From Candidatus Kuenenia stuttgartensis (lineage in GTDB: Bacteria; Planctomycetota; Brocadiia; Brocadiales; Brocadiaceae): a stretch of 32,000 bases of DNA. A model generated the notes under the pieces. The model was not told where the DNA came from. It worked only from the letters and a program-made list of their open reading frames with translations, and searched no databases. Positions 10,460 to 32,000 of the stretch are shown here, piece by piece (position 1 is the stretch's first letter; each line of letters starts with the position of its first letter). The DNA is taken from NCBI RefSeq assembly GCF_900232105.1, contig NZ_LT934425.1, forward strand, positions 1,380,001-1,412,000, written 5' to 3'. The position numbers were made by a program, and so were the translations under genes.

Positions 10460-13003
10460 CTACCTGTTTTCAATCATTTCCAGGTATTTTTTTATTTTTA
10501 AATGCCCCGGGCTAATCGCAATCGCTTCTTTCAACAACGTTTCTGCCCTATCTTTATTGCCTTGTTCGTAATGTATAACCCCTGCACGGAAAAGTGCTTC
10601 TGTGTGAGAAGGTTTAATACGAATGGTTTCTTCAAATGCTTGTAATGCGAGGGCATTATTTCCCATCCTGAGAAATACGTACCCAAGATTAAAACGAAAA
10701 TCGGGATTATCGGGAAGTAAATGAACTGCCTCCTGAAACTCTGACAGCGCACTATCCATGTCGCCTTTTTTTGCGAGGGAGGCGCCAAGGTTGTTGTGGG
10801 CATAAGGATACAAGGGGTCATATTTTATTGCCTGACGATATTCTTCTATCGCCTTATCAAGGATACCTTTTTTGTCATAAAGAGCACCAAGATTGTTGTG
10901 GGCATATGCCAGCGCCTGGTCAATCGCCAGTGCGGATTGATATGCCTCCACGGCAAGTTCGAATTGGTTTTTTGATTCATAAACATTGCCCAGATTGTAA
11001 TATGCGTCACTGTTTAATGGGTCTGCGGCAACCGCCTTCTTGTACGCGGCAATCGCATCTTCATCCATGCCTCTTTTGTTATACAATACGCCTAAATTAT
11101 TATGTGCATCGGCAAAACCGGGGTCGATTGCCAAAGCCGTATTGTATTCCTCAAACGCATCGTCATATTGTTCCATCTCAAAATAAATCTTCCCAAGGTT
11201 GTTATGCGCTTGTTTGTAATCCTGTTTTATTTGGAGTGCTTTTTTGTAAGAAGAAATTGCCTGGGGCAACTGATTCTTTTTTTTGTAAGCATTCCCCATA
11301 TTGTAGTGCACCGTAGCATAACGGGTAAATCCGGTTTCCTGTGATTTTTCTATTGCTTTGCGGTAATACATAAGGGCGGTATCCGGGTCATCTTTTTTAT
11401 TATACTGCGTGCCAAGATTATTATAGGTAGTAAAGCTGCAGAGTGGATTTTGAGCGGAATTGTACCACAGTGTAAATTCATTTTCCCAATGTCTGTTCCG
11501 GGTGATTGTGATGATCGCACAAACTATTAAAACCGGAATGATGAAAGAGTATTTAATCGCTTTCTTTTGATGTGTAATTGCCGTTGAAAAAACTATACAA
11601 CATCCTATGAATGGCAAATAAAGATAGCGGTCTGCCATAAGATTGCTTAACGGAATAATGTTTATGACAGGAAGGAGGGAAATAAAAAACCACAATATCC
11701 CAAACAATATGAAATAAAATCTTTCCTGTCGAAATGTTGCGCTATTTTTATCACATTGCTGCGGTTTGAAGGTTTGAAATATGCATTTTCTTTTTAAACG
11801 GAGAATGATAACAATAAGAGTTGTTAAAAATAAAAATGGCACAATAAAGGCAACCGACAGAGGCGATTTAATGGGTAAGACATGGTAGTCCACATTAAGA
11901 TTAAAAGGTATAAAGATATTGGAAATGTATCTGCCTGTTACTTTTGTTGATGTAAACAAGGCCGTCAGGAAACTATTACCGGGATATTCGATATTCTCAT
12001 GGATATTACGAAATACGATAAATCTGAGGATGAGATACATAATGCTGATCCCTATATAGCTTATGAAATAAGGAGATACGGCTATTTTTGCAAAAGCCCT
12101 GAAGAAAAGGCACGCCCTGTTTTTCCAATACCCGGGTTTTGAGGAGTTGTTTTGGGCATCTTCGGTGGGACCTGCACAGCGGTTGATATGGAAAGCGCCT
12201 GGTTCTTTTTCCAGGGATGGAGAGGGGATGTTTACCGTGCGTTCTTTGAAAAGGAAGCAAAAGGAAAAGATTAATCCCGGCAGCACAATGGCAGATTCCT
12301 TGGAAAGCAATGCCAGGAAATAGGTTGTCATTGCCGCAATATAAACAGGAATACAATGTTTGATTGCAGGCATTGGCGCCATTTCAGTAAAGAATATCCG
12401 GCGACGGTCTTTTGTTTTCTCAGGGTATGCGAGAGAAGACGTTTTTTTGTCAGAGAGCAGAAAAAGCAAAAAGGAGAGCAGTGCAAAATTGGTTGCAAGC
12501 AGGTCTTCTCTATAACTTATTGCGTTAACCGTTTCGTTTACAATGGGGTGCATTATGAACAACAGGGCAGCTAAAAATGCATGATTGATGTATGATGCAC
12601 TGCCCTCTATATACTGAGAAGCGGGGTATTTGACGGGGAAAAAGCATCTGCCCAAACAGCATATAAGAAAATACACCAGCACCGAATTTATTGTGTGTGA
12701 TACTACGTTTGTGATGTGATAACCCATTGGGCGGGATTGCCAGAGTGAATAGTCCACAAAATAAGAAAGAGTCACTACCGGCCTGTATGTCAGCTCTCCG
12801 GAGCGGGCAAAATAATCGTGGGTAAATAAGGCGGAAAGATTCCGCCAGTCTTCAATAAAATGGTTATCTATAATGGTAGAATTGTCATCGTAAACAAACT
12901 GGTTTGGCAGACAATTTAAATACGTGAGAATTGAAACGGTGGAAAGAATGACGATTGATAGAATATGTAATGATTTTTTGTTGCTATATATAGTCAAAAG
13001 CAT
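10460..13003 (-). CDS. Polytopic membrane protein with C-terminal TPR array (TMTC/PMT-like putative GT-C glycosyltransferase), 847 aa
   Basis: The N-terminal ~500 aa contain many hydrophobic helices and the block FVYDDNSTIIDNHFI...ELTYRPVVTLSYFVDY. The C-terminal ~330 aa contain about 9 TPRs (repeated AHNNLG..Y......A...Y..A). It is a paralogue of 19134-21263. Confidence 0.7.
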   Translation of the reverse strand: MLLTIYSNKKSLHILSIVILSTVSILTYLNCLPNQFVYDDNSTIIDNHFIEDWRNLSALFTHDYFARSGELTYRPVVTLSYFVDYSLWQSRPMGYHITNVVSHTINSVLVYFLICCLGRCFFPVKYPASQYIEGSASYINHAFLAALLFIMHPIVNETVNAISYREDLLATNFALLSFLLFLLSDKKTSSLAYPEKTKDRRRIFFTEMAPMPAIKHCIPVYIAAMTTYFLALLSKESAIVLPGLIFSFCFLFKERTVNIPSPSLEKEPGAFHINRCAGPTEDAQNNSSKPGYWKNRACLFFRAFAKIAVSPYFISYIGISIMYLILRFIVFRNIHENIEYPGNSFLTALFTSTKVTGRYISNIFIPFNLNVDYHVLPIKSPLSVAFIVPFLFLTTLIVIILRLKRKCIFQTFKPQQCDKNSATFRQERFYFILFGILWFFISLLPVINIIPLSNLMADRYLYLPFIGCCIVFSTAITHQKKAIKYSFIIPVLIVCAIITITRNRHWENEFTLWYNSAQNPLCSFTTYNNLGTQYNKKDDPDTALMYYRKAIEKSQETGFTRYATVHYNMGNAYKKKNQLPQAISSYKKALQIKQDYKQAHNNLGKIYFEMEQYDDAFEEYNTALAIDPGFADAHNNLGVLYNKRGMDEDAIAAYKKAVAADPLNSDAYYNLGNVYESKNQFELAVEAYQSALAIDQALAYAHNNLGALYDKKGILDKAIEEYRQAIKYDPLYPYAHNNLGASLAKKGDMDSALSEFQEAVHLLPDNPDFRFNLGYVFLRMGNNALALQAFEETIRIKPSHTEALFRAGVIHYEQGNKDRAETLLKEAIAISPGHLKIKKYLEMIENR

Positions 13004-19100: not shown

Positions 19101-19134
19101 AGCCATGAGCCACCAGCCATCAGCCATGAGCCAT
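19101..19134. repeat. Heptamer tandem repeat (AGCCATG/AGCCACC/AGCCATC) x~5
   Basis: Read directly; it abuts and overlaps by 1 nt the stop codon (19134-19136) of the minus-strand gene. Confidence 0.85.
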
Positions 19135-21263
19135 TAATCATCTTCACGTATCTTAACAAGCCCTAACTGCTCCGCTATGGAAAAAAAACCCGGCTCATTT
19201 ACATGGTTGATATCATCCTTCAGGACATGCAGGAGCTGTTCCCTTGCCTCCTGCTTTTTCCCCTGTTGAAAATAAATGATCCCCAGATTCTTACGTGCGC
19301 CAATATTCCGGGGATTTGCCCTTATCGAACTCAAAAATTCCATCTCTGCCAAATCCCATAACCCTTGCCGGCAATACAATGCCCCCAGATTATTGTGCGC
19401 ATTGGCGTGGTCGGGATTCAACCTCAAGGCTTTTTTTAATTCGCTCAGCGCCTCTTCAAAACGATTTGTCTCTGTATAAATGAAGCCTAAATTACTGTGC
19501 GCTTCAGCATACCCCGGGTAAATATATAATGCCTTCCGGTACTGCGCAATAGCGGCGTCAAGATTCCCCTTTTTCAGATAAGCGCTGCCAAGATTGTTAA
19601 ATACCTGCGGCTTATGCATGTTGAGCTGAATCGCCTTGTTAAAAAACACAATGCACTCATCCAGTGCATTTTTATCAAAATAGGCATTCCCCATATTATA
19701 GTAGGCATAGGAAGATGCCGGGTCATAGTGTATTGCCAGGGAAAACTCGGAAATCGCCTTGTCAGTAAGCCCTTTATCAATATACATGGTGCCCAGACTA
19801 TTGTGTCCCTCCGGATAATCATTCTTCAGGAGAACGGCCCTCTCCAACTCCCCGATTGCCCGGTCAAGGTCACCATGCTTGTAATAAAATACCCCAAGAT
19901 TGTTATGCGCATCATGATTATCCGGCTGCTCTTTCGCAATCTTTGTCCAGAAGGTGTATTCGTCCCGCCAGTCATTGTTCCTTAGCACTGTTCTTAGGGC
20001 AAACGAAATAACCACTACTGCTGCAATGGCAATGATACCGGCGCGTCTCTTCAATGCCTGCCTATCGGGCAAAAACAACCCCGTCCTGCTGCCTGCCGGG
20101 ATATTACCGGGAAACCAGCGGCCTATAACGCAGCCTGTCACTCCGCAAAACCCTGCAACCGGAAGATATAAATATCTCTCCGCCATAATATGCCCGATGG
20201 GAATAATATTCATCACGGGCAATAAGGCGGCAAAAAAACACAGTGCAAACAGTCCCTGTATGCGGGAGTGTTTTATTATCCTAAAAACAATCACGCCTAC
20301 CGCCACAAGAAAAAAAACGCTTATGAGAAATGACATGTCGGAGAGCGTGCGTACTGGAATTGCTTTATAATCGGCATTCAAGTGTATGGGTAAAAACATT
20401 TGTTTTACATAATATGCCACCACCTTGACCATCGTCATACCGCTTATCCAAAAACTCTTTTCATAATACGCAACCGAAACAAGCCTTGGGTTTTTCAACA
20501 GGGAGAAACGCACGAGAATGAAAAAAAACGACACGAACGCGTATCCCAAAAGTATTTTTACATAATACCTTTTCAGATATGGTATGCCGCACAGCAACCG
20601 GTACAAAATGATGAATACCGGCAGTACTATTGCGCTTTCCTTGGAAAACAAGGCAAGCATATAAAAGAGCAGTCCGATTATTAAAAAAACCCCCTTTCTC
20701 AAATGCGACCCGTCATCTGCCGGCAATGGCTTATCTTTTGAACATGTTTTTAGTGATTTTATAAGGAAAATGCATGACAGGAAAGAGAAGCCGGCAACAA
20801 GTAAATCTTCCCGGTAACTAATAGCGTTTACCGCTTCGGTTACGCACGGATGAATCGAAAATATTAGCGCGGCAAAGAATGCAATCGACCGCGACTTCAC
20901 CAGATTATTCACCAATATACAGAACATAAGGACGTTGAACGCATGTATCGCGACATTGGACAGGTGATAGCCGAAGGGATTGAGCCCCCATACCGCATAA
21001 TCCAGAAAATAACTTAAGGTAACAACGGGACGATAGCTCAACTCATTGGAAAGGGAGAAATACTCTTTGCTGAATATTTTTGGAAGATTCCCGGGTGATT
21101 TTATGAAATAATTCTCTTCGATAACGCTGATATCATCATAGACAAAACCATTTGGAATGGCATTGAGAAATACGCAGAATGTAATAACAACAAGCAGCAG
21201 CAGCAGCAGATAGAATGCCTTTGATTTTGACATGGTTATAGTAGTGGATGTCCCATGGCTCAT
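19134..21263 (-). CDS. Polytopic membrane protein with C-terminal TPR array (TMTC/PMT-like putative GT-C glycosyltransferase), paralogue 2
   Basis: FVYDDISVIEENYFI...ELSYRPVVTLSYFLDY aligns with the 847-aa paralogue. The C-terminus has about 8 TPRs. The track start 21263 lies inside a heptamer repeat; ATG 21233 (MSKSKAFYLLLLLLVVITF) is the more plausible start. Confidence 0.7.
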   Translation of the reverse strand: MSHGTSTTITMSKSKAFYLLLLLLVVITFCVFLNAIPNGFVYDDISVIEENYFIKSPGNLPKIFSKEYFSLSNELSYRPVVTLSYFLDYAVWGLNPFGYHLSNVAIHAFNVLMFCILVNNLVKSRSIAFFAALIFSIHPCVTEAVNAISYREDLLVAGFSFLSCIFLIKSLKTCSKDKPLPADDGSHLRKGVFLIIGLLFYMLALFSKESAIVLPVFIILYRLLCGIPYLKRYYVKILLGYAFVSFFFILVRFSLLKNPRLVSVAYYEKSFWISGMTMVKVVAYYVKQMFLPIHLNADYKAIPVRTLSDMSFLISVFFLVAVGVIVFRIIKHSRIQGLFALCFFAALLPVMNIIPIGHIMAERYLYLPVAGFCGVTGCVIGRWFPGNIPAGSRTGLFLPDRQALKRRAGIIAIAAVVVISFALRTVLRNNDWRDEYTFWTKIAKEQPDNHDAHNNLGVFYYKHGDLDRAIGELERAVLLKNDYPEGHNSLGTMYIDKGLTDKAISEFSLAIHYDPASSYAYYNMGNAYFDKNALDECIVFFNKAIQLNMHKPQVFNNLGSAYLKKGNLDAAIAQYRKALYIYPGYAEAHSNLGFIYTETNRFEEALSELKKALRLNPDHANAHNNLGALYCRQGLWDLAEMEFLSSIRANPRNIGARKNLGIIYFQQGKKQEAREQLLHVLKDDINHVNEPGFFSIAEQLGLVKIREDD

Positions 21264-22528: not shown

Positions 22529-23200
22529 TCATAACTCGCTTAACCTATGCTTCCGGTGTTTAACGACCGTTGCCCTTACAATATACACCACTTCTTCCGC
22601 TATATTGGTGGAATGGTCGGCGATTCTTTCCAAATGGCGCGAAATAAACATCAGGTGCACTGCCCGTATAATATTCCCAGGGTCTTCCATCATATATGTC
22701 AGTAATTCGCGAAATATCTGGTCATTGAGGGCATCAACCGTGGAATCGCGCTGGCAAACCGCCTGCGCAAGGGTGGTATCTTTATTCACAAACGCATCAA
22801 TGCTGTCTTTCACCATAGTTTGCGCAATAGTTGCCATCATTGGGATGTCTATTAGGGGTTTTAGCTGCGGTTCCTGATTCAGAGGAACAACCCGCTCCGC
22901 TATGTTTACCGCAAGATCACCCATCCTCTCGAGATTATTGGTAATCTTCATCGCTGAGGTTATAAACCGGAGGTCAACCGCCATTGGCTGTTGCAAAGCC
23001 AGCAGGTCAACGCACTGCTTATCTATCTCCAGTTCTAAATCATCCACCTGCTCATCGTGCATCACCACTGAGTGCGCCAGGTCGCTGTCTCTTTCTTTTA
23101 ATGACTTAACGGCGTTTGAAATAGCCATCTCAACGACAGAGGCCATCTGGATAAGATTCCTCCGGAGAACACCTAATTGTTGGTCAAAATGTCTTTCCAT
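22529..23200 (-). CDS. phoU: Phosphate-signalling regulator PhoU
   Basis: Two PhoU repeats with the signature helices LERMGDLAVNIAE and LERIADHSTNIAEE; 223 aa. Confidence 0.9.
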   Translation of the reverse strand: MERHFDQQLGVLRRNLIQMASVVEMAISNAVKSLKERDSDLAHSVVMHDEQVDDLELEIDKQCVDLLALQQPMAVDLRFITSAMKITNNLERMGDLAVNIAERVVPLNQEPQLKPLIDIPMMATIAQTMVKDSIDAFVNKDTTLAQAVCQRDSTVDALNDQIFRELLTYMMEDPGNIIRAVHLMFISRHLERIADHSTNIAEEVVYIVRATVVKHRKHRLSEL

Positions 23201-24423: not shown

Positions 24424-24465
24424 CAAAAAAAGGGGTGTTATATCTTTCGACATAACACCCCTTTT
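24424..24465 (-). terminator. Rho-independent terminator of the S-layer gene
   Basis: The minus strand reads AAGGGGTGTTAT-gtcgaaagat-ATAACACCCCTT followed by TTTTT. The 12-bp stem is perfect, and the hairpin lies 37 nt after the TAA stop. Confidence 0.9.
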
Positions 24466-24501: not shown

Positions 24502-27500
24502 TTATTTTGCAAGAGTGACGTTTACTTTCGGTTTATCTTTCACACCTTTTACAGCAAACTTCACGTTAGCTTTTCCTTTGCTCTTCTTCGCCTTCACGGT
24601 AAACGTTGCCTGGCCACTTGTATCTGTTGTTTCGCTGGCAGGCGTTACCTTAATCTTCTTCTTGTTAGCCGAAGTAAGCTTCCTCTTTACCTTCACGCCT
24701 TGTGCAGGGCAACCATCTTCATCTGTTACCAGCACTATAACGTCTTCGCTGTCACCTTTTGTAAGACTCAGGCTATCCGGTGTTACAGTAGCGGCTGAAG
24801 CAACTGCCTCATCCGGTTCCGGACATGGTCCTTTCGGTTCCAAGGTTACTGGCAGGATCGTTACCGGAGGTGTCACTGTTACCGTTACAACCGATGTGAG
24901 ATAGTCAGTTGCACTTACAGAAACCTCGTAATCACCGGCTTCGAGGGTAAAGGTAGCTCCACCACTTGCATCCGTAACTCCGGATTGTCCATCAACAGTC
25001 ACCGTAGCTCCTGCGATTGGAATGCCATCTCCATCCGCAACCGCAACTACCAATGTCGCAGTTGGTGGAGGCGTCACAGTTGGCGTTGTTATTGGTGTTC
25101 CCTGAACAGAAGCAACCAACGCGAAGTCGAGGTTTGTTGTCCCGCCTGCCGTTACTACTATAGCAGTAGGGGCTGAGGGAACGTAACCGAGAGCCACAGC
25201 GGTAAAGGTACGAGTTCCAGCTTCAACATTCGCAATCGAGTAGAACCCATCCGCGTCAGTTGTATCAGTGTAAATCCCTGACTGATTACGCACCGTCGCT
25301 CCTTCAATGCCATCCCCTGTCGCCGCATCCGTTACAAACCCTTCTACCGAACCGAGTCCAGGTATCAGAGATGGTGTTGGCGTTAGCCCAGGGGTTGGAG
25401 TTATTCCAGGCGTTGGAGTTACCCCAGGCGTTGGTGTAGGCGAAGGTGTTACAGCAGCCGTTATAGCAGCCGTATCCGTCACAGTCCTGGTTGACGATGT
25501 TGTATTTATCGTGTCTGAATAAGTCACCGTCAGCGTTTCACCTTCTGCTCCCTGAATCTGGTTAAATTCAGTAGTAGCACCGCTAGAAGTTACCAGGATA
25601 GACCCTACAAATGTTCCTGTGTCATTACCCGTTTCCACCAGCCTCATCTTCGTGCTGTTTACTGAAGATGTTTGAATAAACACATCATCTAACAACGTTT
25701 CAGTGCCTGTATGAGACGTATTTCTTTCTGCATCAGCCAATGTGACAATAGCATATGTGCCTAAACCATAGGAATCTGCATTAAACTCTATAGTCGCATC
25801 ATAAGAGCCAAATGACAGCGTCTCTGTGACGGTAGTGTTGGAAGGGCTGGAATCCGTGTATGTTACAGTAACAACCCCGCCTTCCTGTGCTTTCACCTTA
25901 CCTAAATTAGCACTTGTTTCAACTGTTTCTGTACCAGTGGTAAAGGTGGCAAGGAATGTTCCGGAGGTATTTCCGCTTTCTACAAGATCTAGCGTAAGAG
26001 CGCCACCTGTAGAGTAATTGCTGCCCTCTATCTTAAGCTTATCAGTCAACGTATCTTGCCCGGAAGTGGTATTCTGATCATCATCAACTACGGATACCAC
26101 CACAGTATCACCGCTCAGGTAGGCTTTCGCTTTACTCAATAATAAAGATCCTATGCTAGTCTCGATACTTAACGGACCGACCACCCTATAATTTGTAGAG
26201 TTGTCCTCTGCAGTAGCGCTTGGAGAATCATTATAATGAACATAAATGCTATCTCCGCTGGATACCTGCAATCTGTCGGAGCTATTCAAGGTGGAACTCG
26301 AACTAGACAATTGGAACGAACCTTTAAATGTTCCAGAGTTAACCGCAGTTTCTTCTAACTTAAAATCGATAGTGTTACTACTCTGATCTACCGATGAACT
26401 TAACACATTGCTAAGTTTGCTTGCATATAAAACCTTTGCAGTAAAGCCATTTTTAAACAAGCCATCAGGTGCATTAGAAGTCGAAGAACCTACCGGATTA
26501 CCCAATCCGTTTTCATTGTAAAAAGTCACATATCTTGTGCCACTTTCGGTACGATCTGGTTCGCTGGTAGTCTGCTTGGACGATGTACTCGTATTTAAAT
26601 CCTCATCAACCAATGTCACCACTACGTATTGATTAGGCCCAATGGTTCCAGATACATTGGTAGACAACTCTCCATCATATGTTTGAAAACCTACATCTGA
26701 AGCAGTCGCAGCCAAAGTATCACCCGCCTTATAGTTACCATCTGCATCTTTGGCATCATTATAACGAATGCGATAGGTTGCGCCAAAAAATCCACCGATG
26801 CGGAATACTTTCGCACCGTTGGAAAGTGTGTCCTCACGAGCCGTAGTCATATCATTTCCTATCACCTGGATCCATGTCTTGTATGGTGTAAATGATGTAG
26901 AACTCGCCAGCTTAGTAACAACCATCGTAGAACCCGCGACTGAAACTACTTCCTGAAATTCCTGAGAAAAATCATCACGTACTCTTACCACTGACCCGGT
27001 ACCAATGAATGAATCCAATCGATTGGTAGAATTGAACTCAGAATTTGCAAACGTAATTGTCGTGTAATCCGTGGAATCTGAAAACGCTGTAGTCCTCGTA
27101 AGAGTTGTATCTGTCGTGACCCTAGCCGCTGTATAATCAAATCCAACCGTACCTACAAAAGTTGCCGAATTTGCCCCGGTTTCTGTCACTGGGATAGCAA
27201 TCCATCTCGTACCATCAGGCGATATTTCAACGGTATCACCCAACCCATCAAGAGTCGCAACAAAAGATGACGTGGTCGCAGAGCTCAGGAAACTCTTCGC
27301 AGCACTTGAAGCTCCTTTCATAAGGGCGTTAGTATCAACACTCTGAGTGCCCAATGTAAAGGTTGCGCTGCCGGCCGAACTGCTACGGGTACCTGGAGTA
27401 CCAATATAACCACTGCTTGGATCTTTTGGAATAATCCAAACCAGAGAATTATCGGTGTTAGATACACGTATAGCCGATGACGTTCCGACAGAAGTACCAT

Positions 27501-29277
27501 CCTTAAAACTCAACGAAAGCGCATTGCCAACCCCTTCTCCAGAGCCAGAGGAATACGCCGCCACCTTCAAACGATCGCCTCTCTCCGCCGTGGTGGTGCC
27601 ATTCCATGAATCCTCACCGACTGACTGCGAAGTAGAACTTGAAGTGTTAAGGTTATCATCAATCACAGTGACTGTTAAGAAATCATTTATATCAACAGTG
27701 GTTTTATCAACAGACAACTCCCCGGTTTTCCCGGCAATTCCAAATGAAATATTGGCCGAAACCGTCCCTGCTTGTCCGTTAGATTTCAACAAATCTAGAT
27801 AAGAAACCTTCAAGGTATCACCATCTCTCGGACCAACCAGCCTGAAGCCGTCAAAAACTACGCTAACGCTACCGTAGCCGCTATTGGCTATAATATCACC
27901 TTCAGTACCAAGTCCAGCCGAATCATTAGGTGTGCTAAACGAGCTCACTGCAATCAAACAATATGAACTTCCATCCATCAACTTAACAAGCTTAGAACCT
28001 GTTGCCGCATAATTAGAGGAACTACTCGGCAAGCCCCAAGCAGAAACCGCATATCCAGTACTGGTCTGTGTTCCATAACACACAACTTTGTGGCCGGTTT
28101 GAGTATCTCCGAGCGATAATGAACTTGTGCCAAAGGCTACAAGAGATGCTCCGACATCTGCCCTAGGGGCAGAAGTTGCGTCAAAAACAACACTGACTGT
28201 TCCATAAGTTTCGGTTGATGTACCATTATAAATAAGCGCAATACCGCCGTTTGCGTTCGCCTCGACAATCCGAAATGTACACGAAACAGTACCGGCCCCC
28301 AAGGTAATATCCTGCCCCTGATAGTAAGATTCAGAACTGCTTCCAACTTTCAGATTTCCTACCAAATCACTAGCCGCAACGGTAGTTGTAGTGCCGTACA
28401 CATAACCGCTTGCCGTAAAAACCCCGGTATTATTACCCGTCTCCACAAGCATTATATGCCTTGCGACAATAGATGTGCCGCCCAAGGATAACGTGTCGCC
28501 CGTATCAGAGGATTGATCAACTGCAGAAATCTGCACCATTGAAGATGCCGTACCCCTTGTGTCACCCGTTGTAAACCCGTCATAAAACCCAATAACATCC
28601 CTGACGACGGGATTAAGGTTTTCATCAGGATCTGAAATACTTAAAATAATATTCCCGTTTGATGGCAAGCCTTCAACCGAGGTAACGCTGGACGGTGAAG
28701 AACTAATGCTACCACTATTGAAACCTACCGTTGCGGTATCCAACGTTGATCCGCCATACAATAGCTCTAAAGTGGAACCCTCCGCAACTTTCAAATCCCC
28801 ACTAGTGGCAGACTGCGCATTTCCACCGATGTTCGCAGCATTCAGCCTCAAATCCAATCCAACAATGCTGTTTCCAAGGACTGAGTACCAATAACTCCCT
28901 GCAAGATCTTCCACATATCCGGAAGTAGTCCCCAAAGCCCTGTAATTGGGCTGTACTGTACCAGTAGTGGTAAATACCGTAGAAGTGTTACCCGTTTCGA
29001 GCAAAATAAACGAGGTAGCGTCGTCTACACCAGCTCTTACCGTTACCGTAATGGTATCCGGAGAACTTGTCGTATTACCTGAGCTGTCTGTCACAGAAAT
29101 CCACGCACGATCGTAATCGTTACCCCCAGCTTTTTCTGGCAGATAGCGATCACGGTCAAAACTCCCCGTGGCGGCCTTTGCGTTTGACGCTACGCCCATA
29201 ACCAGGGCCAGCATCAAAAACAAAACACCTGCCATGCTTAACCAATTGCCTTTTAAATTTAATCCAGGTCTTTTCAT
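24502..29277 (-). CDS. Giant secreted Thr/Ser-rich surface (S-layer-like) protein, 1591 aa
   Basis: Signal peptide (MAGVLFLMLALVMGVASNAKA/AT). Six repeats of a three-part signature: VxVxDxDxN, L-x-E-T/S-G-N-x-x-G-x-F, and G-x-x-h-x-V-x-Y-x-D. PT linker TPSPTPTPGVTPTPGITPTPGLTPTPS (about nt 25363-25452). Two carboxypeptidase-regulatory-like beta-sandwich modules and a Lys-rich Ig-like C-terminal module. GGAG lies 11 nt before the ATG and a strong terminator follows. The resemblance to Kuenenia Kustd1514 is from memory only. Confidence 0.8.
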   Translation of the reverse strand: MKRPGLNLKGNWLSMAGVLFLMLALVMGVASNAKAATGSFDRDRYLPEKAGGNDYDRAWISVTDSSGNTTSSPDTITVTVRAGVDDATSFILLETGNTSTVFTTTGTVQPNYRALGTTSGYVEDLAGSYWYSVLGNSIVGLDLRLNAANIGGNAQSATSGDLKVAEGSTLELLYGGSTLDTATVGFNSGSISSSPSSVTSVEGLPSNGNIILSISDPDENLNPVVRDVIGFYDGFTTGDTRGTASSMVQISAVDQSSDTGDTLSLGGTSIVARHIMLVETGNNTGVFTASGYVYGTTTTVAASDLVGNLKVGSSSESYYQGQDITLGAGTVSCTFRIVEANANGGIALIYNGTSTETYGTVSVVFDATSAPRADVGASLVAFGTSSLSLGDTQTGHKVVCYGTQTSTGYAVSAWGLPSSSSNYAATGSKLVKLMDGSSYCLIAVSSFSTPNDSAGLGTEGDIIANSGYGSVSVVFDGFRLVGPRDGDTLKVSYLDLLKSNGQAGTVSANISFGIAGKTGELSVDKTTVDINDFLTVTVIDDNLNTSSSTSQSVGEDSWNGTTTAERGDRLKVAAYSSGSGEGVGNALSLSFKDGTSVGTSSAIRVSNTDNSLVWIIPKDPSSGYIGTPGTRSSSAGSATFTLGTQSVDTNALMKGASSAAKSFLSSATTSSFVATLDGLGDTVEISPDGTRWIAIPVTETGANSATFVGTVGFDYTAARVTTDTTLTRTTAFSDSTDYTTITFANSEFNSTNRLDSFIGTGSVVRVRDDFSQEFQEVVSVAGSTMVVTKLASSTSFTPYKTWIQVIGNDMTTAREDTLSNGAKVFRIGGFFGATYRIRYNDAKDADGNYKAGDTLAATASDVGFQTYDGELSTNVSGTIGPNQYVVVTLVDEDLNTSTSSKQTTSEPDRTESGTRYVTFYNENGLGNPVGSSTSNAPDGLFKNGFTAKVLYASKLSNVLSSSVDQSSNTIDFKLEETAVNSGTFKGSFQLSSSSSTLNSSDRLQVSSGDSIYVHYNDSPSATAEDNSTNYRVVGPLSIETSIGSLLLSKAKAYLSGDTVVVSVVDDDQNTTSGQDTLTDKLKIEGSNYSTGGALTLDLVESGNTSGTFLATFTTGTETVETSANLGKVKAQEGGVVTVTYTDSSPSNTTVTETLSFGSYDATIEFNADSYGLGTYAIVTLADAERNTSHTGTETLLDDVFIQTSSVNSTKMRLVETGNDTGTFVGSILVTSSGATTEFNQIQGAEGETLTVTYSDTINTTSSTRTVTDTAAITAAVTPSPTPTPGVTPTPGITPTPGLTPTPSLIPGLGSVEGFVTDAATGDGIEGATVRNQSGIYTDTTDADGFYSIANVEAGTRTFTAVALGYVPSAPTAIVVTAGGTTNLDFALVASVQGTPITTPTVTPPPTATLVVAVADGDGIPIAGATVTVDGQSGVTDASGGATFTLEAGDYEVSVSATDYLTSVVTVTVTPPVTILPVTLEPKGPCPEPDEAVASAATVTPDSLSLTKGDSEDVIVLVTDEDGCPAQGVKVKRKLTSANKKKIKVTPASETTDTSGQATFTVKAKKSKGKANVKFAVKGVKDKPKVNVTLAK

Positions 29278-29734
29278 ATCCTACACATCTCCTTTTACTA
29301 AGACCAACATGAATATGCTTCCAATAAAATTCCGCCCATACATTGGCAGCCACAAGGGCTGCCCCAACATTACATCATGATAATTTTTTAACTCCCAATG
29401 TACTACGACCCCCTTCTGAAATCACACCACCTCCTTTTCAGGAATGCGAATTATGATAAGAGATGGGAAAACTGCACGTGCGTTTCTCTGCTCGTTACCT
29501 TGCCGCGATAGCGCAGGCCTTGGCAGAAAAACCAACTACTTTCTTCCTTATATTCACCCTCCTTTCCTAAATAATAACGCACGATTGTGTATTCAACTAT
29601 TAGACAAGCTAAGACATTTTAGATTTTTTTAATCTGTGTAATCTTTGGTTTCTTTGGTTTTTTTTATTAATTTATGATTTTTAAATCGTAATTCCTAACA
29701 ATATGCCCTGTATAGCTAAACCCCGGTGTCGCAG

Positions 29735-29763
29735 AATATAGCACGCAATCAGATGACAGTCAA
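29735..29763 (-). promoter_or_regulatory. Candidate sigma-70-type promoter for the S-layer gene (long leader)
   Basis: The minus strand reads TTGACT (29763-29758), a 17-nt spacer, and TGc-TATATT (29740-29735). This would give a leader of about 450 nt. Weaker alternatives exist nearer the gene. Confidence 0.35.
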
Positions 29764-29830: not shown

Positions 29831-29914
29831 GAAGTCAGAAGTCAGAAGTCAGAAGCCAGAAGCCAGAAGTCAGAAGTCAGAAGTCAGAAGTCAGAAGCCA
29901 GAAGCCAGAGGTCA
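29831..29914. repeat. Heptamer tandem repeat (GAAGTCA/GAAGCCA) x12
   Basis: Read directly. The homologous position in the next two units has only about 3 units. Confidence 0.9.
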
Positions 29915-29960
29915 TAGGGCAGAAGTCGGCAGTCGGCAAATTACAGATTGAGGATTGCAG

Positions 29961-30016
29961 ACTGGGGACTGGGGACTGGGGACTGGGGACTGGGGACTGG
30001 GGACTGGGGACTGGGA
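29961..30016. repeat. Heptamer tandem repeat (ACTGGGG) x8
   Basis: Read directly. The homologous positions at 31011-31024 and 31930-31943 have 2 units. Confidence 0.9.
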
Positions 30017-30058
30017 ACATCTCTCGTTCCCAAGCATCTCTCGTTCCCAGTCTCTCTC

Positions 30059-30264
30059 GTTCCCAAGCTCCGGCGTACACCCTTGTTCCCAAGCTCCGGC
30101 GCACACCCTTGTTCCCAAGCTCCGGCGCACACCCTTGTTCCCAAGCTCCGGCGCACACCCTCGTTCCCAAGCTCCGGCGCACACCCTCGTTCCCAAGCTC
30201 CGGCGTACACCCTTGTTCCCAAGCTCCGGCGTACACCCTTGTTCCCAAGCTCCGGCTTGGGAAT
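30059..30264. repeat. 26-bp tandem array (7 units) of REP half-sites ending in a complete REP palindrome
   Basis: The unit GTTCCCAAGCTCCGGCGyACACCCTy starts at 30059, 30085, 30111, 30137, 30163, 30189 and 30215. The last unit (30241) is completed to GTTCCCAAGC-TCCG-GCTTGGGAA. Confidence 0.9.
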
Positions 30265-30293
30265 ACGCTTATACCAGAAGCTCCAGCTTCTTT

Positions 30294-30827
30294 TCATAAT
30301 TCAATTTGATCTATCTCGATACATCCTTTGCCATAAAGGTAATTCCCTGCGCTCGAATAAACCCAATGTCCGGCATCTTCTACCAGCCCCCTTCTTACAG
30401 GATTGCAATGTATATATGCAACCTTTTGTCTAAACACATCCTCCTGCGCAACCACCTGCGGGTGGAATCCTTCCTGCCATACCTGATATTCGCTGGTAGC
30501 CTTGTGTCCTTTTTTATAAAATTCAAACTGTTTCAGAAGCCGCTTCCTCTGATTCTCTTTTGCTATCCGTATAATTTCCCGCGCAGTATAGCTCTTAAAA
30601 TCTCTTATTATTCCAGACACCGCCTCTGACGAAACAAGAAGGTGTATATGGGTATCCATTACAACATAAGCAAACAATCGCAGCCCTTTTTTCTGTCTGC
30701 AATAAGTTAACGAATTGACTATGATGTCGCAAAATATCTTTTCTGTAAATACCGGTAGCCACCCGACAATTGTAGAGGTTATAAAATACAGGTTGCTGTT
30801 TTTTACTATTTTGTAACGTGATCTCAT
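30294..30827 (-). CDS. REP-associated tyrosine transposase (RAYT; IS200/IS605-like Y1 HUH protein), copy 1
   Basis: HUH motif VVMDTHIHLLV and C-terminal catalytic-Tyr region KVAYIHCNPVRRGLV; 177 aa; REP palindromes on both flanks. Confidence 0.8.
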   Translation of the reverse strand: MRSRYKIVKNSNLYFITSTIVGWLPVFTEKIFCDIIVNSLTYCRQKKGLRLFAYVVMDTHIHLLVSSEAVSGIIRDFKSYTAREIIRIAKENQRKRLLKQFEFYKKGHKATSEYQVWQEGFHPQVVAQEDVFRQKVAYIHCNPVRRGLVEDAGHWVYSSAGNYLYGKGCIEIDQIEL

Positions 30828-30863
30828 GATTTTCCGCGCAAAGCATCGCTTTTACCGCATGTA

Positions 30864-30923
30864 CGTTCCCAAGCCGGAGCTTGGGAACGAGGGTGTGCAC
30901 CGGAACTTGGGAACGAGGGTGAA
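30864..30923. repeat. REP palindrome plus an inverted 26-bp unit upstream of RAYT copy 1
   Basis: CGTTCCCAAGC-CGGA-GCTTGGGAACG followed by AGGGTGTGCACCGGAACTTGGGAACGAGGGTG. The latter is the reverse complement of the 26-bp unit found on the other side of the gene. Confidence 0.9.
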
Positions 30924-31067
30924 ACAGTCCTCAATCGGCAATCGGCAGTCAGAAGTCAGAGGTCTGAAGTCGGCAGTCGGCAGTCGGCAAATTACAGATT
31001 GAGGATTGCAGACTGGGGACTGGGAACACCTCTCGTTCCCAGGCATCTCTAGTTCCCAGTCTCTCTC

Positions 31068-31169
31068 GTTCCCAAGCTCCGGCGCACACCCTCGTTCCCA
31101 AGCTCCGGCGTACACCCTTGTTCCCAAGCTCCGGCGTACACCCTTGTTCCCAAGCTCCGGCTTGGGAAT
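31068..31169. repeat. 26-bp tandem array (3 units) plus terminal REP palindrome
   Basis: Units start at 31068, 31094 and 31120; the terminal palindrome is at 31146-31169. Confidence 0.9.
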
Positions 31170-31198
31170 ACGCTTATGCCAGAAGCTCCAGCTTCTTT

Positions 31199-31732
31199 TC
31201 ATAATTCAATTTGATCTATCTCGATACATCCTTTGCCATAAAGGTAATTCCCTGCGCTCGAATAAACCCAATGTCCGGCATCTTCTACCAGCCCCCTTCT
31301 TACAGGATTGCAATGTATATATGCAACCTTTTGTCTAAGCACATCCTCCTGCGCAACCATCTGCGGGTGGAATCCTTCCTGCCATACCTGATATTCGCTG
31401 GTCGCCTTGTGTCCTTTTTTGTAAAATTCAAACTGTTTCAGAAGCCGCTTCCTCTGATTCTCTTTTGCTATCCGTATAATTTCCCGCGCAGTATAGCTCT
31501 TAAAATCTCTTATTATTTCAGACGCCGCCTCTGACGAAACAAGGAGGTGTATATGGGTATCCATTACAACATAAGCAAACAATCGCAGCCCTTTTTTCTG
31601 TCTGCAATAAGTTAACGAATTGACTATGATGTCGCAAAATATCTTTTCTGTAAATACCGGTAGCCACCCGACAATTGTAGAGGTTATAAAATACAGGTTG
31701 CTGTTTTTTACTATTTTGTAACGTGACCTCAT
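31199..31732 (-). CDS. REP-associated tyrosine transposase (RAYT), copy 2
   Basis: 177 aa, differing from copy 1 at 4 residues (AVSGI/AASEI, QVVAQEDVF/QMVAQEDVL), with the same flanking palindromes. Confidence 0.8.
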   Translation of the reverse strand: MRSRYKIVKNSNLYFITSTIVGWLPVFTEKIFCDIIVNSLTYCRQKKGLRLFAYVVMDTHIHLLVSSEAASEIIRDFKSYTAREIIRIAKENQRKRLLKQFEFYKKGHKATSEYQVWQEGFHPQMVAQEDVLRQKVAYIHCNPVRRGLVEDAGHWVYSSAGNYLYGKGCIEIDQIEL

Positions 31733-31768
31733 GATTTTCCACGCAAAGCATCGCTTTTACCGCATGTA

Positions 31769-31828
31769 CGTTCCCAAGCCGGAGCTTGGGAACGAGGGTG
31801 TGCACCGGGGCTTGGGAACGAGGGTGAA
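31769..31828. repeat. REP palindrome plus an inverted 26-bp unit upstream of RAYT copy 2
   Basis: Same sequence as 30864-30923 except GGGG for GGAA in the second unit. Confidence 0.9.
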
Positions 31829-32000
31829 ACAGTCTTCAATCGGCAATCGGCAATCGGCAATCGGCAGTCAGAAGTCAGAGGTCTGAAGTCGGCAGTCGGC
31901 AGTCGGCAAATTACAGATTGAGGATTGCAGACTGGGGACTGGGAACACCTCTCGTTCCCAGGCATCTCTAGTTCCCAGTCTCTCTCGTTCCCAAGCTCCG

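Follow-up and report, generated by a model that had tools for sequence, protein, structure and literature searches.

What is the giant gene at positions 24502–29277 of the window (the whole analysed stretch of 32,000 nucleotides (nt) of Candidatus Kuenenia stuttgartensis, contig NZ_LT934425.1), and of what is the long central region of its product, which Pfam does not match, composed? By sequence identity the gene is the one already known as kustd1514, not merely a surface-layer (S-layer)-like gene. It is a textbook item of the biology of anaerobic ammonium-oxidizing (anammox) bacteria, and finding it is not news. The product, however, contained a ~1240-residue region without Pfam matches, which resolved into six copies of a defined immunoglobulin-like (Ig-like) module. 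This module ties Kustd1514 to the Nitrosopumilus maritimus S-layer protein NmSLP, which forms the one S-layer from a nitrogen-cycle organism with a solved structure, and to uncharacterised surface proteins that number in the thousands. The present analysis itself shows which gene this is, how its product repeats and folds, and that its modules are homologous with those of NmSLP; the surface location, lattice formation, and glycosylation come from the literature.

The gene and the N-terminal part of its product were as follows.

24502..29277, minus strand: kustd1514, S-layer glycoprotein precursor, 1591 codons plus stop (open reading frame (ORF), NF052345 match, identity to Q1PYU4_KUEST)
29173..29277, minus strand: signal peptide, residues 1–35, MKRPGLNLKGNWLSMAGVLFLMLALVMGVASNAKA followed by ATGSF (basic N-terminus, hydrophobic core, and AKA site; the cleavage site is putative)

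The initial annotation, made from the sequence alone, had described an ORF of 1591 residues that was rich in Thr, Ser, Gly, and Val with almost no Cys, and had suggested a resemblance to the Kuenenia S-layer protein. The ORF was present on the minus strand, its composition agreed (T 14.5%, S 12.4%, G 10.4%, V 9.4%, and 5 Cys), and the suggested resemblance proved to be identity. The product matched the NCBIfam model NF052345 (Kustd1514 family S-layer glycoprotein) with 2262.7 bits against a cutoff of 1400, aligned end to end (residues 1–1591 with model positions 1–1596), and was 100% identical over 100% of its length to the 1591-residue Q1PYU4 of Kuenenia stuttgartiensis. The calculated mass of the mature protein was 159.8 kDa, which equals the published 160 kDa of the unmodified form, whereas the glycosylated form migrates at ~250 kDa (PMC5088730). 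Kustd1514 is the subunit from which the S-layer of Kuenenia, a crystalline layer at the very outside of the cell, is built, and it bears a methylated O-hexasaccharide at 13 or more sites (PMC5088730). High expression and unusual variability between strains have also been reported (PMC7709395).

The six modules (M1–M6) followed the signal peptide, each with three motifs, whose first residues are given in brackets. AF2 denotes AlphaFold2 models, HMM a hidden Markov model, and i-E an independent E-value.

28693..29172, minus strand: module 1, residues 36–195, with ISVTDSSGN (60), ETGNTSTVF (94), and GSTLELLYGG (167) (M5/M6 HMM at residues 56–109 with i-E 9e-6, motif patterns, AF2 strand and hairpin context)
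27763..28692, minus strand: module 2, residues 196–505, with LSISDPDEN (212), ETGNNTGVF (279), and GDTLKVSYLD (486) (HMM, motif patterns, AF2, hhalign)
26698..27762, minus strand: module 3, residues 506–860, with VTVIDDNLN (536), ETGANSATF (699), and GATYRIRYND (832) (HMM, motif patterns, AF2, hhalign; putative internal boundaries)
26173..26697, minus strand: module 4, residues 861–1035, with VTLVDEDLN (887), ETAVNSGTF (976), and GDSIYVHYND (1008) (hhalign, HMM, motif patterns)
25822..26172, minus strand: module 5, residues 1036–1152, compact Ig-like beta-sandwich, with VSVVDDDQN (1061), ESGNTSGTF (1100), and GGVVTVTYTD (1133) (AF2, Foldseek, hhalign)
25462..25821, minus strand: module 6, residues 1153–1272, compact Ig-like beta-sandwich, with VTLADAERN (1178), ETGNDTGTF (1215), and GETLTVTYSD (1246) (AF2, Foldseek, module profile, hhalign)

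The three motifs were written as the regular expressions [VIL]x[VIL]xDx[DENS]xN, E[TSNQ][GATN]xx[TS][GSAT]xF, and G[DEGAS]x[VILY]x[VILA]x[YF]x[DNEG]. Each expression matched Kustd1514 exactly six times and in the strict order 1-2-3, at residues 60/94/167, 212/279/486, 536/699/832, 887/976/1008, 1061/1100/1133, and 1178/1215/1246. Shuffling the protein 2000 times gave mean numbers of matches of 0.07, 0.02, and 0.05, and the observed count was reached in none of the shuffles. The expressions were tuned on Kustd1514 itself, and a separate sequence, an NmSLP orthologue, was the fair control; it contained four, six, and three matches against 0.17, 0.03, and 0.04 expected. The residues of the motifs occupied invariant or near-invariant columns among 32–48 homologues of 42–60% identity, with Asp1065, Asp1067, Glu1100, Gly1106, Phe1108, Tyr1140, Glu1184, Asn1186, Glu1215, Gly1221, Phe1223, and Asp1255 as invariant examples. 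All 16 motif strings quoted in the initial annotation were found at the residues given there, except ITVTVRAGVDDA, which starts at residue 76 instead of 75. This string had been taken as the first motif of module 1, but the equivalent segment is ISVTDSSGN (residues 60–68), and ITVTVRAGVDDA is the next strand. The third motif, ascribed there to most modules, was present in all six, with GSTLELLYGG and GATYRIRYND as the additional copies.

For comparison by hhalign, the family alignment of 32 members was divided into six module pieces. M4, M5, and M6 were mutually homologous, with probabilities of 97.6–98% and E-values of ~1e-12 to 1e-13; the M4–M5 and M4–M6 pairs gave 97.6% (E about 3–4e-12), and the M5–M6 pair gave 98%. 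The expanded modules gave partial alignments with probabilities of 89% (M2–M5), 87% (M3–M4), and 72% (M1–M5), which leaves module 1 as the weakest of the six. An HMM constructed on the M5 and M6 segments of every homologue recovered its own segments in register within M1 (56–109), M2 (206–229, 264–301, and 485–499), M3 (518–559 and 681–745), and M4 (868–904 and 957–1022). Since the profile comparisons of M1–M3 were only partial, these in-register fragments and the predicted secondary structure were relied on for the first three modules.

The AlphaFold2 model of residues 1040–1265 was composed of two beta-sandwiches with a mean predicted local distance difference test (pLDDT) score of 92.5, and the model of residues 36–1041 was weaker, with a mean pLDDT of 69.8. 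In all six modules of these models, the first motif formed a strand and then a helical turn of three residues, the second formed a hairpin with Glu at the end of one strand, a six-residue loop, and Phe at the start of the next strand, and the third formed a strand. The motif occurrences thus fall on the same predicted secondary-structure elements in every module. The first motifs were irregularly spaced (152, 324, 351, 174, and 117 residues) because of beta-rich insertions in M1–M4. Module 2 had an insertion of ~200 residues between motifs 2 and 3, module 3 had insertions on either side of motif 2, and module 4 had one of ~70 residues after motif 1. The proposal of insertions into an ancestral repeat is supported by the mutual homology of M4–M6, the in-register segments in M1–M4, and the shared structural context. 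Pfam gave no match in residues 1–1309 even at E ≤ 1, and no Cadherin or Big match in residues 36–1290.

When the M5–M6 model was compared with the PDB by using Foldseek, the top match was NmSLP (8c8k_A) with an E-value of 2.6e-12, a template modelling (TM) score of 0.71, and 19% identity over ~240 columns, and the next unrelated match had an E-value of only 8e-4. The model of residues 36–1041 also matched NmSLP first, with an E-value of 1.5e-15. A profile of 18 M5/M6 modules found NmSLP among all PDB sequences at an E-value of 9.4e-14; the best single stretch scored 36 bits (i-E 5e-8), and further partial copies lay along NmSLP. In this profile search, the NmSLP segments VVRVIDPDMN, LTVTETNEATGIF, and EGDTVTAEYED aligned with the three Kustd1514 motifs. 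The module HMM scored 71.8 bits on the NmSLP orthologue, whereas none of 480 composition-matched shuffles exceeded 8.1 bits, and in the reverse direction HMMs of NmSLP domains scored 14.6 and 17.2 bits on Kustd1514 against shuffle maxima of 7.0 and 10.7. A family-versus-family hhalign comparison placed Kustd1514 residues 1051–1257 on residues 1395–1616 of the NmSLP orthologue with a probability of 95.7%; all hhalign matches between the two overlapped and fell in the M4–M6 region. The whole-family model NF052345 matched the orthologue at an E-value of 5e-11 with 40.7 bits, far under its cutoff of 1400. Single-sequence and full-length-profile searches of PDB sequences gave carboxypeptidase-type domains only. 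NmSLP thus surfaced only with a module-level profile, which is probably why the link was missed.

Chain 8c8k_A contains 253 residues, which is the same length as residues 1364–1616, and because of this agreement in residue count alone the chain was taken to cover domains 8 and 9 of NmSLP. Modules 5 and 6 therefore appear to correspond to these domains, and domain 9 forms the base of the NmSLP lattice on the side of the membrane (PMC11153153). As a separate observation, several single Nitrosopumilaceae genomes carried NmSLP-like proteins at two separate loci (the pairs L007/L008, L044/L045, and L025/L060), which agrees with the two paralogues Nmar_1547 and Nmar_1201 (PMC11153153).

The module was much more widespread than these two S-layers. 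When 1.84 billion cluster representatives were searched exhaustively with the module HMM, 3626 proteins had E-values of 1e-3 or lower; of these, 1224 were at or below 1e-10 and 262 at or below 1e-30. Giant proteins with up to 51 copies headed the matches, and the range covered several bacterial phyla and archaea. Among the carriers were Actinomycetota metagenome-assembled genomes (MAGs), with S-layer homology (SLH) domains in one protein, as well as Bacteroidota, Nocardioidaceae, Candidatus Hecatella, and some Rhodomonas transcriptome entries. A word-indexed homologue search with the module alignment gave merely five C-terminal fragments of anammox proteins, and neither Pfam nor NCBIfam holds a dedicated model for the module. 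Because its carriers span Actinomycetota, Bacteroidota, and others, the module is a common brick of surface proteins and is not specific to ammonium oxidizers; by profile score, NmSLP is not the nearest member of that family but a remote one. A specific evolutionary link between the S-layers of anammox bacteria and ammonia-oxidizing archaea was considered and found unsupported, with proteins of organisms that do not oxidize ammonium matching the module far better. Closer to Kustd1514, 51 homologues of 42–56% identity had the six-module core and the CarboxypepD_reg C-terminus in common with it.

The C-terminal part beyond the modules was composed of a linker and three domains.

25354..25461, minus strand: Pro/Thr linker, residues 1273–1308, beginning TPSPTPTPGVTPTPGITPTPGLTPTPS, net charge 0 (sequence)
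25114..25353, minus strand: first CarboxypepD_reg beta-sandwich, residues 1309–1388 (PF13620 at E 2.4e-21 over residues 1310–1387; carboxypeptidase D domain in PDB entry 5aq0 at E 3e-7)
24853..25056, minus strand: second CarboxypepD_reg/PEGA-like beta-sandwich, residues 1408–1475 (second PF13620 stretch; PEGA match at 1422–1470)
24505..24777, minus strand: basic Big_1-like Ig domain, residues 1501–1591, putative cell-proximal anchor (sub-cutoff PF02369 match; charge)

The (TPTPG)n linker, the two carboxypeptidase-regulatory-like modules, and the Lys-rich Ig-like end proposed in the initial annotation were all recovered. PF13620 matched with 76.3 bits over two stretches, against a gathering threshold of 32.3. 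Kustd1514 as a whole had a net charge of −68 and an isoelectric point (pI) of 4.3, and every lattice module was acidic (net −9 to −14, pI 4.1–4.6), whereas the last 91 residues contained 19 Lys with a net charge of +10 and a pI of 9.9. Ig-like folds have been predicted for the C-terminal part of a Brocadia homologue (PMC7482068). It was also observed that the ~85-residue repeats described as intrinsically disordered in Brosi_A1236 of Brocadia sinica (residues 1254–1338 and 1354–1439; PMC7482068) fall about where Kustd1514 folds. Two other Brocadia homologues (P0041 and P0042) have two confident CarboxypepD_reg domains there, like residues 1309–1475 of Kustd1514.

These results are best explained by Kustd1514 being a secreted, acidic, O-glycosylated S-layer protein in which the six Ig-like modules form the lattice and the C-terminal domains point toward the cell, a reading to which we assign a probability of roughly 0.85. 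As to function, the published role as a glycosylated coat of the cell that assembles by itself has the best support. Beyond the signal peptide, the ~1240 residues of the array consist of six copies of one beta-sandwich, each with a strand ending in the D-x-D-x-N turn, the beta-hairpin hxE-TGxN(S/T)G-xF, and the closing strand GDxhxVxYxD. Modules 5 and 6 are the compact form (~110 residues), and modules 1–4 carry beta-rich insertions of 70–200 residues. This array, made of the same kind of module as NmSLP, would be the lattice-forming part. From it the presumably flexible Pro/Thr linker, the two CarboxypepD_reg sandwiches, and the Lys-rich Big_1-like domain would reach toward the cell, where they probably hold the acidic sheet on the outer membrane, which is negatively charged. 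By analogy with the orientation of NmSLP, the N-terminus would face outward and the C-terminus inward, with the basic end at the anionic outer membrane.

Several results weigh against this picture. The evidence for M1–M3 was partial, both in hhalign (72–89%) and in the confidence of the AlphaFold2 model (mean pLDDT 69.8), and module 3 may be more complex than drawn, with an additional segment resembling motif 3, GDRLKVAAY, at residues 567–575. The match to PF02369 (Big_1; residues 1506–1586, E 8.9e-7) had 29.4 bits, below the cutoff of 34.9. In PDB sequences the full-length profile did not retrieve NmSLP at E ≤ 0.01, and no full-length collinearity was found; the relationship of the two proteins is at the module level only, inside a large family. 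In the flanking DNA, the total of promoter sites, like that of terminator sites, was not above shuffle expectation.

The homology with NmSLP and the acidity of the sheet raise, by analogy, the idea that the lattice might act as a cation sieve that concentrates ammonium, in addition to being a coat. The module homology and the best structural match both lead to NmSLP, for which the ammonium function is backed by isothermal titration calorimetry, treatment with ethylene glycol tetraacetic acid (EGTA), and molecular dynamics (PMC11153153), both organisms are ammonium oxidizers, and all lattice modules of Kustd1514 are negative. The sieve is nevertheless unlikely. The module occurs beyond ammonium oxidizers, in Actinomycetota, Bacteroidota, and others, with scores far above that of NmSLP; the charge density is ~3.5 times below that of the NmSLP orthologue; the rise in negative charge from N- to C-terminus stressed by the NmSLP authors is missing; the conserved motif acids lie outside the 61 high-occupancy ammonium residues of NmSLP; and a negative sheet would repel nitrite, an anion that anammox likewise requires. 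A shared ammonium-handling function of the two sheets is speculative. Less probable still is the full combination, in which the S-layers of anammox bacteria and ammonia-oxidizing archaea derive from one ancient unnamed Ig-like module, the sheet concentrates ammonium, and the D/N/E/D residues bind Ca2+. Taken separately, the D and N of DxDxN, the E of ETG, and the D of YxD may bind Ca2+ where modules join and so stiffen the array, a tentative proposal that falls a little short of even odds; in the alternative, these conserved polar residues merely shape the turn and the hairpin. We infer that their role is structural and possibly Ca2+-binding. The four positions were invariant or more than 90% conserved in the pooled M5/M6 alignment A4 (D26, N30, E61, and D103), are the most conserved of the module, and recur in NmSLP, whose lattice disassembles in EGTA (PMC11153153). 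In the AlphaFold2 models, the strand directions would put the B–C turn and the D–E hairpin near the end of the last strand of the previous module. None of the 17 numbered motif-core residues of NmSLP was among its 61 high-occupancy ammonium residues, as fits occupied or buried positions, and adjacent acids (E746, E748, D855, D857, D1263, D1308, D1394, E1590, and E1592) are on that list; by our own crude estimate of roughly 0.8^17, about 0.02, the absence is a weak argument. Ca2+-bound repeats-in-toxin (RTX) adhesin repeats were among the weak Foldseek matches (6xi1, E 3.5e-3). However, modules 1 and 6 are degenerate at the turn (DSSGN and DAERN), and no statement that the motif residues bind ions was found in the NmSLP paper (PMC11153153).

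A different emphasis would make Kustd1514 mainly a shed extracellular matrix or adhesion polymer of anammox biofilms and not a cell-bound coat. Its homologue Brosi_A1236 is reported to be an abundant, gel-forming, and phase-separating matrix protein, described as a 'public good' exopolymer (PMC7482068, PMC10202920). This is doubtful for Kustd1514, which was itself described as the crystalline outermost cell layer (PMC5088730); the coat and matrix roles are not exclusive, and the 'disordered' regions of Brosi_A1236 lie about where Kustd1514 and the two Brocadia homologues have folded CarboxypepD_reg domains. It is very improbable that the repeated motifs are O-glycosylation sequons and not determinants of the fold. 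The proposed recognition sequence is GT/SX (PMC5088730; bioRxiv 10.1101/2020.12.03.409086), and the hairpin motif does contain G-T/S (TGTF and SGTF), but the same hairpin is kept in the N-glycosylated archaeal NmSLP and in Actinomycetota proteins, and Kustd1514 has 52 G-[ST] sites overall, so that the motif is not needed as their source. The only published glycopeptide that could be placed, LGTQATSALPLIALTK, lies off the motifs, and the sequon reading was rejected on these three points. This key glycopeptide of the 2016 study (PMC5088730) is absent from the present allele. It was present in four homologues of 54–58% identity (alignment A1), including one of 1576 residues, the length given in PMC5088730, in which it lies at about residue 627. 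The corresponding place is in the module-3 insertion, at residues ~620–640 of the present protein (window ~27360–27420). The 1576-residue allele (P0008), of the 'kustd1514b' type, is 54% identical to the present one. Because the published map of 13 sites was made on the 'kustd1514b' type, it is not directly transferable to the present sequence.

The expression signals around the gene were the following.

29289..29295, minus strand: Shine-Dalgarno sequence AAAGGAG, 11 nt 5′ of the ATG (sequence)
24428..24465, minus strand: intrinsic terminator with a 17-pair stem (one G-T pair), a GAAA loop, and a T-run, beginning 37 nt past the stop codon (terminator scan)
29735..29763, minus strand: best sigma-70-like promoter match, TTGACT-17-TATATT with a TG extension (10 of 12 consensus positions, top site in the region)

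Of the scan results, just two were used, the highest-ranking promoter site and the terminator past the stop codon. The candidate promoter, a consensus match only, would give a leader of ~450 nt. The strong ribosome-binding site and the long upstream non-coding region (a gap of 1016 nt) claimed in the initial annotation were confirmed, and its perfect terminator was present but, with one G-T pair, near-perfect. Judged by their sequences, the promoter-like site, the ribosome-binding site, and the terminator are consistent with the reported high expression (PMC7709395). Rfam gave no match in the window, the long leader included. Two strong Shine-Dalgarno-like boxes, AAAGGAGG, were observed in the putative leader on the minus strand (29430–29437 and 29558–29565), ~150 and ~280 nt 5′ of the start. 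No long ORF lies behind them, and a 15-codon ORF is possible after the proximal box. In genes with high expression, Shine-Dalgarno-like boxes can have a stabilising effect on long leaders.

Positions 29831–32000, immediately upstream of the S-layer gene, contained a tandem unit of ~905 bp, with copies 89% identical in nucleotide sequence. Each unit combined a 177-residue ORF of an IS200-like Y1 transposase with arrays of repeats of 7, 16/17, and 26 nt. The two transposase ORFs (30294–30827 and 31199–31732, minus strand) agreed at 174 of 178 aligned positions (177 residues and the stop), and a third unit begins near 31840. The units look like an arrangement of repetitive extragenic palindromes and their associated tyrosine transposases (REP/RAYT type), and they might be relevant to the reported hybrid kustd1514 alleles (PMC7709395). 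The neighbouring genes encode a PhoU-family protein (22529–23200) and two large tetratricopeptide repeat proteins (19134–21263 and 10460–13003), all on the minus strand. No glycosyltransferase or secretion genes were found beside the S-layer gene within the window.

The database searched by the NmSLP authors was restricted to archaea, and their paper names neither anammox nor Kuenenia nor Planctomycetes (PMC11153153); a 2025 review of S-layers is likewise silent on all three. Within the reach of the literature search, no published link between Kustd1514 and NmSLP was found, nor any paper combining anammox, S-layer, Ig-like, and Kuenenia. Within this searchable literature, the six-module grammar, its link to NmSLP, and the broad unnamed family appear to be undescribed. 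If the reading of one module is true, the electron cryomicroscopy structure of NmSLP is usable as a template for the Kuenenia lattice. The gains are this template for an anammox lattice, a set of candidate residues for ion binding, and a seed alignment for a family still missing from Pfam, with the caution that the published glycosites were mapped on another allele.

When compared with known systems, the present protein did not differ at the protein level from Kustd1514 as deposited (UniProt Q1PYU4, NCBI CAJ72259). Brosi_A1236 and other S-layer or matrix glycoproteins of Brocadiales are homologues of Kustd1514 according to the literature (PMC7482068). The C-termini of the Brocadiales homologues were variable, with additional Big_5, SpaA-like, or invasin-D3-like matches in some, and the Brocadia literature stresses the matrix and phase-separation roles. 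Surface proteins from Actinomycetota and Bacteroidota MAGs (e.g. HEX9712695.1, with SLH domains) carry 5–51 tandem copies of the Kustd1514 module and outscore the anammox proteins on the module profile, but these uncharacterised proteins have other anchoring (SLH) and another overall architecture. Cadherin repeats and the Ig-like extender domains of RTX adhesins (PDB 6XI1) resemble Kustd1514 in being tandem beta-sandwiches with conserved acids near the junctions. They serve as an analogy for stiffening, with no significant sequence similarity and weak Foldseek matches only (E 3.5e-3).

The comparison with NmSLP (Nmar_1547; PDB codes 8C8K, 8C8L, 8C8M, 8C8O, and 8C8R) was the most detailed. Both proteins share the Ig-like module and its three motifs (VVRVIDPDMN, TVTETNEATGIF, and GDTVTAEYED in NmSLP), are of similar size (1734 and 1591 residues), and are acidic and glycosylated. 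One domain of NmSLP is nested in another, comparable to the insertions in modules 2–4 of Kustd1514, and in both a C-terminal part is proposed as the anchor of the layer. However, NmSLP is archaeal and Kustd1514 comes from a diderm bacterium, and their identity is ~19% at the module level only. NmSLP carries N-glycans instead of O-glycans and lacks the CarboxypepD_reg and Big_1 end of Kustd1514. The net charge of the NmSLP orthologue is −234 against −68 for Kustd1514, and the negative charge of NmSLP rises from the N- to the C-terminus (PMC11153153), whereas the profile of Kustd1514 is flat and ends in a C-terminal domain of +10.

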